From assembly GCF_056712565.1 (NCBI RefSeq), contig NZ_CM160072.1: 64,000 nt of DNA. One strand, given 5' to 3'. Below, piece after piece: positions 7,820 to 50,709 of the stretch. Positions within the stretch are counted from its first letter, which is position 1. Every line of letters starts with the position of its first letter. Below the pieces are notes generated by a model that saw only the letters and a list, made by a program, of their open reading frames with translations, did not search any database and was not told the origin of the DNA. A program made the translations under genes and the position numbers.

Positions 7820-8968
7820 TTGATTAAGTCAGCGCTATTGGTTCTGGAAGACGGAACCCAGTTTCACGGTCGGGCCATAGGGGCAACAGGTTCGGCGGTT
7901 GGGGAAGTCGTTTTCAATACTTCAATGACCGGTTATCAAGAAATCCTCACTGATCCTTCCTATTCTCGTCAAATCGTTACTCTTACTTATCCCCATATTG
8001 GCAATGTCGGCACTAATGACGCCGATGAAGAATCTTCTCAGGTTCATGCCCAAGGTCTGGTGATTCGCGACCTGCCGCTGATTGCCAGCAACTTCCGTAA
8101 TACCGAAGACCTCTCTTCTTACCTGAAGCGCCATAACATCGTGGCGATTGCCGATATCGATACCCGTAAGCTGACGCGTTTACTGCGTGAGAAAGGTGCT
8201 CAGAATGGCTGCATTATCGCAGGCGATAACCCGGATGCGGCGCTGGCATTAGAAAAAGCCCGCGCGTTCCCAGGTCTGAACGGCATGGATCTGGCAAAAG
8301 AAGTAACCACCGCAGAACCCTATAGCTGGACACAAGGGAGCTGGACACTGACCGGCGGCCTGCCAGAAGCGAAAAAAGAAGACGAGCTGCCGTACCACGT
8401 CGTGGCCTACGATTTCGGTGCCAAGCGCAACATCCTGCGTATGCTGGTGGATAGAGGCTGTCGCCTGACCATCGTTCCGGCGCAAACTTCTGCGGAAGAT
8501 GTGCTGAAAATGAATCCGGACGGCATCTTCCTCTCCAACGGTCCTGGCGACCCGGCCCCGTGCGATTACGCCATTACCGCTATCCAGAAATTCCTCGAAA
8601 CTGATATTCCGGTATTCGGCATCTGCCTCGGTCATCAGCTGCTGGCGCTGGCGAGCGGTGCGAAGACTGTCAAAATGAAATTTGGTCACCACGGCGGCAA
8701 CCATCCGGTTAAAGATGTTGAGAAAAATGTGGTGATGATCACCGCCCAGAACCACGGTTTTGCGGTGGATGAAGCAACATTACCTGCAAACCTGCGTGTC
8801 ACACATAAATCCCTGTTCGACGGTACGTTACAGGGCATTCATCGTACCGATAAACCGGCGTTCAGCTTCCAGGGACACCCGGAAGCCAGCCCTGGTCCAC
8901 ACGACGCCGCGCCGTTGTTTGACCACTTTATCGCGTTAATTGAGCAGTACCGTAAAACCGCTAAGTAA
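7820..8968 (+). CDS. carA: carbamoyl-phosphate synthase small (glutaminase) subunit
   Basis: 382 aa counted from the in-frame TTG at 7820 (carA is known to use a UUG start; protein begins [21 protein letters not shown]); the track ORF from ATG 7793 adds 9 codons. Catalytic Cys in GICLGHQ present. Confidence 0.93.
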
Positions 8969-13178: not shown

Positions 13179-13574
13179 ATGTGTGAAGGATGTGTTGAAA
13201 AACCACTCTATTTGTTAATCGCCGAATGGATGATGGCTGAAAACCGGTGGGTGATAGCAAGAGAGATCTCTATTCATTTCGATATTGAACACAGCAAGGC
13301 GGTTAATACCCTGACTTATATTCTGTCGGAAGTCACAGAAATAAGCTGCGAAGTTAAGATGATCCCTAATAAGCTGGAAGGGCGGGGATGCCAGTGCCAG
13401 CGACTGGTAAAAGTGGTTGATATCGATGAGCAAATTTACGCGCGCCTGCGCAATAACAGCCGGGATAAATTAGTCGGCGTAAGAAAGACGCCGCGTATTC
13501 CTGCCGTTCCGCTCACGGAACTTAACCGCGAGCAGAAGTGGCAGATGATGTTGTCAAAGAGTATGCGTCGTTAA
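13179..13574 (+). CDS. caiF: transcriptional activator of the cai and fix operons
   Basis: 131 aa from ATG 13179 (MCEGCVEKPLYLLIAEWMMAENRWVIAREISIHF...); the track ORF from 13074 is an upstream extension. Confidence 0.9.
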   Translation: MCEGCVEKPLYLLIAEWMMAENRWVIAREISIHFDIEHSKAVNTLTYILSEVTEISCEVKMIPNKLEGRGCQCQRLVKVVDIDEQIYARLRNNSRDKLVGVRKTPRIPAVPLTELNREQKWQMMLSKSMRR

Positions 13575-19326: not shown

Positions 19327-20844
<1,518 letters not shown>

Positions 20845-21091
20845 TTAATTCCACTGTGAAAACGAACATTTATTTTGCGTTCCCGTTTGTTTTATTTTTG
20901 TTAACATTTAATATAATTATTATTAACCTCGTGGACGCGTTAATGGCTAACTCATAATGGGTATTCAATAAGCTGCATTCTGTGATTGTTATCACATTTT
21001 TGTTTCGGGTGAATAGAGGGCATTTTTTCGTTAATTTTGATTATTAATCAGTTTGTTATGTTATGTTGTGAGTAAAAAAATAGCATCTGAC

Positions 21092-21222
21092 TTTCAATAT
21101 TGGTGATCCATAAAACAATATTGAAAATTTCTTTTTGCTACGCCATGTTTTCAATATTGGTGAGGAGCTTAACAATATTGAAAGTTGGATTTATCTGCGT
21201 GTGACATTTTCAATATTGGTGA
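21092..21222. promoter_or_regulatory. cai-fix divergent control region with repeated palindromic CAATATTG motifs (CaiF / CRP / FNR target region)
   Basis: tttcaatattggtga occurs three times (21092-21106, 21149-21163, 21208-21222) interleaved with aacaatattgaaa (21115-21127, 21171-21183); the core CAATATTG is self-complementary. Confidence 0.7.
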
Positions 21223-21313
21223 TTAAAGTTTTATTTCCAAATTAAAGGGCGTGATATCTGTAATTAACACCACCGATATGAACGACGTTTCCTTCATGAT
21301 TTCTGGAGATGCA

Positions 21314-22084
21314 ATGAAGATTATTACTTGCTATAAGTGCGTGCCTGATGAACAGGATATTGCGGTCAATAATGCTGATGGTTCGTTAGACTTCAGCAAA
21401 GCCGATGCCAAAATAAGCCAATACGATCTCAACGCTATTGAAGCGGCTTGCCAGCTAAAGCAACAGGCAGCAGAGGCGCAGGTGACGGCCTTAAGTGTGG
21501 GCGGTAAAGCCCTGACCAACGCCAAAGGGCGTAAAGATGTGCTATCGCGCGGTCCGGATGAACTGATTGTGGTGATTGATGACCAGTTCGAGCAGGCACT
21601 GCCGCAACAAACGGCGAGCGTACTGGCTGCAGCCGCTCAGAAAGCAGGCTTTGATTTGATCCTCTGTGGCGATGGTTCTTCCGACCTTTATGCCCAGCAG
21701 GTTGGTTTGCTGGTAGGCGAAATCCTTAATATTCCGGCAGTTAACGGCGTCAGCAAAATTATCTCCCTGACTGCAGATACCCTCACCGTTGAGCGCGAAC
21801 TGGAAGATGAAACAGAAACCTTAAGCATTCCGCTGCCTGCGGTTGTTGCTGTTTCCACTGATATCAACTCCCCACAAATTCCTTCGATGAAAGCCATTCT
21901 CGGCGCGGCGAAAAAGCCAGTCCAGGTATGGTCGGCGGCGGATATCGGTTTTAACGCAGAGGCAGCCTGGTCAGAACAACAGGTTGCCGCGCCGAAACAG
22001 CGCGAGCGTCAGCGCATCGTGATTGAAGGCGACGGCGAAGAACAGATCGCCGCATTTGCTGAAAATCTTCGCAAAGTCATTTAA
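21314..22084 (+). CDS. fixA: electron transfer flavoprotein beta-subunit homologue
   Basis: 256 aa from ATG 21314 ([15 protein letters not shown]...); the track ORF from 21251 is an upstream extension. Confidence 0.92.
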
Positions 22085-49860: not shown

Positions 49861-50709
49861 ATGAGCAAACGTAACGATATTACTGATGGAATATTTGCAA
49901 CAACGAAAAAGTATGGATTAGTTTATACCGAAGAGTTAGGTTGGATCGATTTGGGGCATGCTCAGGGACAAGATGCCAGAATATTAAAAAGAAAATTGGA
50001 GCAAGAACATTTTTCAACATATTACGATGAATTTCATGATTGGTATTTTCCTGTTGATTATCATCAGGAAATGGGAATTCGGAAAAAAATATTAGGAGTA
50101 GATCTTACATTTCATACCGGTGTTTATACGAAGGTTATGGTTCGTTCATGTCTTTCACCCACTCTTAAAGCAAGAGTTGCCTTAACGTTAATGTATGGAA
50201 CTGCGAAGAGGTTTGAAGCATGGCAAAACTCATTTATTTTTAACTGGTATACTGATAGCGGATTTAGTGCAGAAGATTTAGTCTCAGACTTGATTGGTTT
50301 TTATCGTGTATTTGGAACAGGCCCCGATCCACTTTTATTGGCAAAACCTTTATCTTACACAAAAGCCTTACAAATATGGGATACATATGGAGCGCCAGGG
50401 AATTTTAAAAATACTGAGTTTACGCCATTCTTATTTACAACCCATCCTCCTTTTAAAAAAAATCAACTAATAAAAAAGAAGCTTCCAGAATGGTTAAATT
50501 ATATAAAGCCATTAGATGAGTCTTTTTCAATATTGTTATATAATCAATATAATAATAGACCTGTTACTAATTATTATAAAGATAAAAACAGAATAAATCA
50601 TGAGTTGTATAGTTCATTATCAAGTTCGGGAGCTATAAAGTTTTCAGAATCTCCCTTTGAAAGACCGCTTTTTCTTTTCTTAAACCCTCATTATCCGCAC
50701 AGGTCGTGA
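49861..50709 (+). CDS. hypothetical protein, 282 aa, no signal peptide, family unassigned
   Basis: Uninterrupted 283-codon ORF in roughly 30% GC DNA (unlikely by chance); RBS gaggggag 6 nt upstream of ATG 49861 (GTG at 49858 also in frame); product rich in K/N/Y/F: MSKRNDITDGIFATTKKYGLVYTEELGWIDLGHAQGQDARILKRKLEQEHF... Confidence 0.7.
   Translation: MSKRNDITDGIFATTKKYGLVYTEELGWIDLGHAQGQDARILKRKLEQEHFSTYYDEFHDWYFPVDYHQEMGIRKKILGVDLTFHTGVYTKVMVRSCLSPTLKARVALTLMYGTAKRFEAWQNSFIFNWYTDSGFSAEDLVSDLIGFYRVFGTGPDPLLLAKPLSYTKALQIWDTYGAPGNFKNTEFTPFLFTTHPPFKKNQLIKKKLPEWLNYIKPLDESFSILLYNQYNNRPVTNYYKDKNRINHELYSSLSSSGAIKFSESPFERPLFLFLNPHYPHRS

Follow-up and report, generated by a model that had tools for sequence, protein, structure and literature searches.

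The divergent cai-fix promoter region, which CRP activates jointly with a pathway-specific regulator, is an example of textbook scale and now serves as a biosensor for L-carnitine. To our knowledge, there is no explanation yet of how CaiF, when bound at -70 and -127, contacts RNA polymerase. The two transcription starts reportedly lie 289 bp apart, with a perfect CRP motif at -41.5 of cai and CRP sites 2 and 3 at -69.5 and -126.5 of fix. A 50-bp region overlapping the fix start is reported to be needed for cai transcription and was proposed to transmit the CaiF signal.

PMC12083890 (citing Buchet et al., 1999) and PMC3680233 give the CaiF recognition sequence as 5'-TTTCAATATTG-N13-CAATATTGAAA-3', and the former describes two sites, F1 and F2. 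Either site has a pair of 11-bp half-sites with 13 bp between them, which gives four half-sites in all. The CRP site at -41.5 of the cai promoter is listed in PMC3680233, and the RegulonDB v8 paper places the CRP pair of fixAp in the manner of acsP2 and names the proximal position of -69.5. GrlA, which belongs to the same family as CaiF (PF07180) and provides its closest solved fold (4KT5), is described as an activator of LEE1 P1 that binds in the -35/-10 spacer (Islam et al., 2011, as cited in PMC10877973 and PMC4856446).

The locus studied here resembles these systems in part. Four of its five motif copies have the sequence and the geometry of F1 and F2 and lie in the same intergenic region, whereas the fifth is a left arm alone, inside the putative fix core promoter. 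F1 and F2 are described as perfect 11-bp inverted repeats; here, however, a conserved GTGA extension on the left arms makes left and right arms unequal. Moreover, F1 and F2 make two pairs, whereas the number of pairs in other genera ranges from 0 to 3. The fifth copy, like the described GrlA target at LEE1 P1, lies between the -35 and -10 hexamers, but the LEE1 spacer has a suboptimal 18 bp and the fix spacer 17 bp, and GrlA is not known to have upstream paired operators or a CRP partnership. MerR-type activators also have their site between -35 and -10; however, their spacers are over-long (19-20 bp) and the fix spacer is not, their site is a dyad whereas the fifth copy is a single asymmetric element, and their fold differs from the winged helix of CaiF. 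Finally, the acsP2-type tandem CRP arrangement (-69.5 and about -122.5, a 'regulatory phrase' of RegulonDB) has its counterpart in two CRP-like boxes 57 bp apart (-69.5 and -126.5), but each of the cai-fix boxes, unlike those of the acsP2 type, is nested at the dyad of a CaiF inverted repeat.

Results

Five motif copies between caiT and fixA

In the window (the whole 64-kb stretch of E. coli DNA analysed here), the palindromic core CAATATTG has eight matches against 1.11 +/- 1.05 expected, and none of the shuffles reached eight. An earlier note on this DNA had described five such cores within about 130 bp, in two alternating contexts of three and two copies, had placed them in the cai-fix divergent control region and had named CaiF as the protein concerned. 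All of this is borne out: the five cores match exactly at 21095-21218, between the caiT start and the fixA ATG (Table 1), and four of them match the published CaiF consensus. The context TTTCAATATTGGTGA(T/G) occurs in three copies on the plus strand, 57 and 59 bp apart, which run on into GGTGA(T/G), and the context AACAATATTGAAA in two copies on the minus strand, 57 bp apart. The caiT-fixA region is 100% identical to that of E. coli HS13-1 and 97.5% identical to that of K-12.

Table 1. Features of the cai-fix control region and its genes, in window positions; cells are empty where nothing applies.
Feature	Position	Strand	Description
caiF	13179..13574	+	131 aa; from its ORF and Pfam PF07180 CaiF_GrlA
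caiT	19327..20841	-	heads the cai operon; start codon on the complement at 20839-20841
CRP box, cai promoter	20982..20997	.	TGTGATTGTTATCACA, perfect; conserved in E. coli
Exact CAATATTG cores	21095, 21116, 21152, 21173, 21211		caiT-fixA intergenic region
Exact 11-mers TTTCAATATTG	21092(+), 21116(-), 21149(+), 21173(-), 21208(+)
CaiF operator pair, distal to fix	21092..21126	.	TTTCAATATTG-N13-CAATATTGAAA; F1 or F2
CRP-like box	21102..21117	.	GGTGA-TCCATA-AAACA (GGTGATCCATAAAACA); centre 21109.5, 0.5 bp off the distal pair's dyad
CaiF operator pair, proximal to fix	21149..21183	.	TTTCAATATTG-N13-CAATATTGAAA; perfect inverted repeat
CRP-like box	21159..21174	.	GGTGA-GGAGCT-TAACA (GGTGAGGAGCTTAACA); centre 21166.5, on the dyad of the proximal pair
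CRP-like box	21200-21215	.	TGTGAcattttCAATA, 7/10
Sigma-70-like fix promoter	21201..21229	+	GTGACA 21201-21206; 17-bp spacer 21207-21223; TAAAGT 21224-21229
Unpaired fifth copy	21208..21223	+	TTTCAATATTGGTGAT; conserved core 14-mer TTCAATATTGGTGA at 21209-21222
GTTTTATTT block	21228..21236	+	fixed distance after the fifth copy in all genera; 0.96
TGnTAnnT block and AT-rich block	21252..21266	+	TGATATCTGTAATTA; in register with the fifth copy
fixA	21314..22084	+	first gene of the fix operon; ATG at 21314

The array is real and strongly non-random, but the CaiF operator already in the literature accounts for four fifths of it. Both pairs are perfect 11-bp inverted repeats with a 13-bp separation, as in a CaiF operator; in the distal pair the 11-nt arms are 100% complementary, with 13 nt between them. 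The four paired copies are the published operator pair F1/F2 and as such already known. In the earlier note the number of copies exceeded what is usually described, which was taken to be two half-sites; given that the published baseline is four, only one copy is surplus. As an outcome that would refute its reading, the note had named protection of a single pair by CaiF; the protection of both F1 and F2 in the literature already answers this.

What is repeated is the motifs and their spacing only, not the sequence of the linkers. An origin as a tandem repeat was considered and rejected: TRF finds no array, and the linkers are no more alike than shuffles (p = 0.36 in E. coli, p = 0.10-0.43 in Proteus). 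An Rfam search returned a single match, sub-threshold and meaningless (15.7 bits versus a gathering score of 75). Far from the array, an isolated exact TTTCAATATTGTTA, the right-type consensus, lies at 50525-50538 within a 283-aa ORF in very AT-rich DNA and is probably a chance occurrence.

Layout across enterobacterial loci

A FixA search with one genome per species gave 63 loci, 45 of which are enterobacterial cai-fix loci with a divergent caiT. They belong to Escherichia, Citrobacter, Salmonella, Pseudocitrobacter, Phytobacter, Intestinirhabdus, Pluralibacter, Atlantibacter, Trabulsiella, Cedecea, Entomohabitans, Providencia, Proteus and Serratia, plus two further Enterobacteriaceae. The layout is (+ -)n + with n = 0-3 in 44 of the 45. 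Two pairs are found in 34 loci and one pair in seven (Atlantibacter, Trabulsiella, Pluralibacter, Cedecea and the two further Enterobacteriaceae), while Proteus mirabilis and P. hauseri (L040, L041) have three pairs plus the unpaired copy, i.e. seven cores, all with a 59-bp period. Carnitine regulation is said to differ in Proteus (PMC2131755). Serratia sp. H1w (L042) has no pair at all and carries the unpaired element and its downstream block alone, at about 8768-8840; there, the module lies 270 bp ahead of the fixA match, compared with the usual 103 bp or so. The sole exception among the 45 is Entomohabitans teleogrylli (L031), in which the unpaired copy is absent and the proximal region is different; one CaiF pair is seen there at 223 and 202 bp before fixA. 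The proximal pair is kept in 43 of the 45 loci, the distal pair, as second or third pair, in 36 of 43, and the unpaired copy in 44 of 45. The number of upstream pairs is evolutionarily adjustable (0 to 3), and the unpaired promoter copy is the constant part.

Spacing is conserved as well. The two cores of a pair lie 21 bp apart in all 81 pairs, which is two helical turns and should put them on the same face; neighbouring pairs are 55-59 bp apart, and the last pair is followed by the unpaired copy after 59 bp in 38 of 43 loci (88%; range 58-61). No similarity was detected among the linkers between the modules, whether compared within one species or across species. Averaged over columns, the majority fraction in the Escherichia/Citrobacter/Salmonella clade is 0.95-0.99 in the five elements and 0.63-0.80 in spacers and linkers; the unpaired copy reaches 0.99 and is as conserved as the best paired half-sites. 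Left and right half-sites differ: the 8-bp core is exact in 72 of 81 left (89%), 59 of 81 right (73%) and 39 of 44 unpaired copies (89%), and GTGA follows the core in 65/81, 0/81 and 43/44, respectively.

These regularities bear on a model that takes up the suggestion of the earlier note (cooperative multi-site binding or DNA wrapping), in which CaiF would polymerise on, or wrap, a periodic array of five equivalent palindromic CAATATTG sites. Five exact cores at conserved spacing agree with it, as does a module period of 55-61 bp that is conserved though the linker sequences are not, and the reported long-range need for the fix-start region in cai transcription would suit a higher-order complex. 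The copies are, however, not five equal units. Four are fixed in pairs of strict geometry and the fifth is a lone left-type element; two classes of site are distinguished by the GTGA that never follows the right-type copies; and the number of cores differs between genera (3, 5, 7 or 1). Additionally, CaiF is predicted to have a single winged-helix head. The module period in the window, 57-59 bp, is about 5.4-5.6 turns; successive modules would thus face roughly opposite sides of the helix, a geometry that does not favour smooth wrapping. Several sites at conserved spacing fit cooperative binding, the data give no sign of wrapping, and we regard the model as a whole as unlikely.

The earlier note had proposed comparing the number of repeats across strains. 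Among 5,390 E. coli genomes there is no sign of a deletion or duplication of one module: synthetic queries carrying such changes match only as two pieces, in the normal 261-bp arrangement. Of 5,390 genomes, 5,387 have an identity of 95% or more over the 175-bp block that bears the array; for the adjoining 175 bp this holds in 4,152 of 5,391, with 1,239 below 95%. This adjoining stretch (20913-21087, mainly 20970-21070), which covers the half of the intergenic region lying between the CRP box and the first pair, is hypervariable within E. coli between near-identical flanks; it is 80-90% identical in 653 genomes and 90-95% identical in 586, and the variation looks like two deeply diverged haplotypes. 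In E. coli SFE8 (L006, NZ_CP051219; 1749-2509) an IS26 sits at the upstream edge of the array, where the match ends at about window position 21089, and unrelated genes take the place of the fix operon.

CRP-like boxes and an inferred map of the two promoters

Compared with TGTGA-N6-TCACA, the box at 20982-20997 matches at 10/10 positions, that at 21159-21174 at 8/10, and those at 21102-21117 and 21200-21215 at 7/10, part of each right half (CA) being dictated by the CaiF core. In the boxes nested in the pairs, the first two bases of the CaiF core double as the outer CA of the right CRP half, and for this reason the CRP and CaiF motifs share bases. The CaiF cores lie 10.5 bp to either side of the nested CRP dyad, a geometry that would allow CaiF and CRP to occupy opposite faces of one segment.

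A promoter scan of the intergenic region gave GTGACA-17-TAAAGT as its sole plus-strand match (9/12), although the number of matches, 2 against 2.7 expected, is no more than chance would give. These hexamers imply a fix start at about 21236; the positions of the CRP boxes and the conservation of the hexamers in the E. coli clade support it, and it agrees with the start reported for E. coli. Counted from there, the CRP-like boxes are centred at -69.5 (21166.5) and -126.5 (21109.5), and the latter is presumably the published third CRP site. With the CRP box at 20982-20997 placed at -41.5, the cai start comes to lie near 20948, 288 bp from 21236. On this map the centre of the proximal pair falls at -70 of fix and -218 of cai, and that of the distal pair at -127 and -161, respectively. 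The fifth copy spans -28 to -18 and its 14-mer -27 to -14, and it fills the -35/-10 spacer of the inferred E. coli fix promoter. Conservation of the hexamers is limited to the Escherichia/Citrobacter/Salmonella clade (GTGACA 0.99, TAnnGT 0.88), and consequently a reading in which the fifth copy acts as a spacer element cannot hold as such in Proteus, Providencia and other distant genera. Promoter scans in Proteus, Providencia, Trabulsiella and Pluralibacter gave no consistent promoter.

The unpaired copy

The fifth copy (TTTCAATATTGGTGAT) is identical to the left arm of the distal pair at 16 of 16 positions and is without a partner half-site: the position 13 bp downstream reads TATTTCCAAAT. 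A right-half PWM, built from 33 distinct right half-sites, gives -24.5 there, which ranks at the 44th percentile of window positions, compared with 5.7 to 23.4 for true right half-sites. Between offsets of 10 and 39 bp, in 16 species, the PWM yielded background scores only. A degenerate sixth half-site, completing either a full site or a class II dyad, was accordingly rejected, and there is no promoter-proximal half-site for a class II dyad near -41.5 overlapping the -35. The fifth copy is asymmetric, deeply conserved and placed at a definite position relative to promoter-like hexamers.

In effect, the left element is a 14-mer, TTCAATATTG(G/T)TGA. With up to one mismatch allowed, 124 occurrences fall within 450 bp upstream of fixA and a single one in the other 1.2 Mb or so of the fetched loci. 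Other CaiF targets were considered and rejected, since in the window, as in these 1.2 Mb, the 14-mer is essentially restricted to the cai-fix region.

Further conserved sequence lies downstream of the unpaired copy. G(G)TTTTATTT follows it in fixed register in 44 of 44 loci, and TGnTA lies 41 or 42 bp past the first base of the unpaired core, again in all 44, including genera that are devoid of GTGACA/TAAAGT. An AT-rich block comes next, at core+50 to +55; its sequence is TAATTA in E. coli, whereas Proteus, Providencia, Pluralibacter and Trabulsiella have TATATT, TATAAT or TATTTT. If the promoter is mapped as above, the TGnTAnnT and AT-rich blocks correspond to +16 to +31 of the E. coli fix leader.

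These blocks raise the possibility of a different, ancestral fix promoter starting near 21266-21273, of which the fifth copy would be the upstream activator site. Its -10 region would be formed by TGnTAnnT and TAtwTt (21252-21266), 41-55 bp downstream of the fifth copy, and CaiF, at about -54 to -60, would contact the polymerase in a class I or OmpR-type fashion and not from a spacer. The fixed register and the -10-like hexamers of the distant genera speak for it, as do a scan hit at the block in Pluralibacter (TTGGCC-18-TATATT) and Serratia sp. H1w, which retains exactly the unpaired element and the downstream block. However, TGnTAnnTn was rejected as a firm extended -10, given that position 6 of the hexamer is never T in any genus; the second block of E. 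coli is TAATTA; the scans gave no consistent promoter in Proteus, Providencia or Trabulsiella; and a start at this place conflicts with CRP boxes at -69.5/-126.5 and with the start reported for E. coli. We consider an ancestral promoter possible but doubtful, and the chief rival of our preferred reading.

CaiF and the motif

caiF is present in every motif-bearing locus with sufficient flank, except in two of Salmonella enterica subsp. diarizonae and arizonae (L029, L030), which keep five perfect cores. In both, neither caiF nor caiE was detected beside caiD within 10 kb upstream, and caiF may lie elsewhere in the genome. A 629-aa ORF with a TAT-signal-like N-terminus is found there instead. 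In 14 Shewanella caiT-fixA loci with enough upstream sequence, neither caiF (in the fetched flank) nor the array was found.

Across 19 CaiF orthologues, only 52-98% identical, Y11, N43, Y47 and R75 are invariant; these residues are reported to contact DNA, and their substitution by alanine impaired a CaiF-based sensor (PMC12083890). Their invariance matches that of the DNA word. The AlphaFold model of CaiF (pLDDT 76.5) has a single winged helix-turn-helix, with the recognition helix at 38-51 and the wing at 55-82, and among solved structures GrlA (4KT5) is the best structural and the sole sequence match. Given that one reading head is predicted per CaiF protomer, a protomer could plausibly be served by a single element of 11-14 bp.

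A further alternative is that something other than CaiF binding has preserved the fifth copy, which would be core-promoter sequence, a CRP site (TGTGAcattttCAATA), spacer or UP-like DNA, or the vestige of an old module duplication. In E. coli it overlaps both the 7/10 CRP-like box and the -35/-10 spacer, and its conservation is not specific, because close relatives show high conservation all the way from 21200 to the fixA ATG. In addition, no CaiF site at the fifth copy is reported in the accessible literature. Against this, the 14-mer is intact without the upstream TGTGA in Pluralibacter, Atlantibacter, Providencia, Proteus, Cedecea and Trabulsiella, none of the 14 conserved positions of the left-type CaiF half-site is altered in the fifth copy, decay like that of the linkers would be expected of a vestige, and the motif is missing where caiF was not found, the two Salmonella loci apart. 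A role independent of CaiF is in our view very unlikely.

Discussion

We read the fifth copy, whose placing resembles that of the GrlA site at LEE1, as a promoter-embedded candidate contact site for CaiF. Our preferred explanation, to which we give slightly better than even odds (roughly 55%), is that the array serves both divergent promoters, cai and fix, as their CaiF operator and that its lone fifth element is bound by a CaiF protomer in the fix promoter. In such a scheme, CaiF dimers and CRP would occupy the upstream pairs, while one winged-helix protomer, or one head of a dimer, would sit on the unpaired element. Placed there beside RNA polymerase at fix, CaiF may help the polymerase and may link the promoter with the CaiF/CRP complexes bound further upstream. 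In E. coli and its close relatives, CaiF would act from the -35/-10 spacer, in the fashion of GrlA at LEE1 P1. Both the binding of CaiF to the fifth copy and activation from it are inferred.

The analogy has its limits. The site lies between -35 and -10 as for other spacer-binding activators, though in Escherichia, Citrobacter and Salmonella only, and the fix spacer is not of the suboptimal length of 18-20 bp on which such activators act. That it is already optimal, at 17 bp, is a point against our preferred explanation. A protein bound in an optimal 17-bp spacer more usually represses. Another is that the accessible literature names F1 and F2 alone as CaiF sites, so that published CaiF footprints may not have shown protection of the fifth copy; a literature search found no genome-wide CaiF binding data. 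Similarity between the fix and LEE1 spacers (the latter from the promoter sequence in PMC3130263) was considered and rejected, none being detected (p = 0.65).

Is this a new kind of system? In our view, it is a modest and testable refinement of a known one. The new part comprises an unpaired, promoter-embedded element, its conservation in at least 14 genera and a variable number of pairs. If the fifth element does not bind CaiF, the finding reduces to published biology.

A bolder extension, which we put forward tentatively and consider rather improbable, is that the unpaired promoter element is the essential target of CaiF and that fix is activated from within the -35/-10 spacer, the upstream pairs being accessory enhancers of variable copy number that work with CRP. 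The same element would then be the fix-start region that is reportedly needed for cai, about 265 bp away. If the 50-bp region required for cai is as reported, the fifth copy, which lies within it, is the obvious candidate element.

For the engineering of sensors, the minimal module would be the 14-mer and its downstream block. A conserved CaiF-type element in the fix core promoter would offer a direct and testable answer to the question of how CaiF contacts the polymerase, and it would tie CaiF mechanistically to the virulence regulator GrlA. Should activation from the spacer prove true, the mechanism would be common to the CaiF/GrlA winged-helix family.
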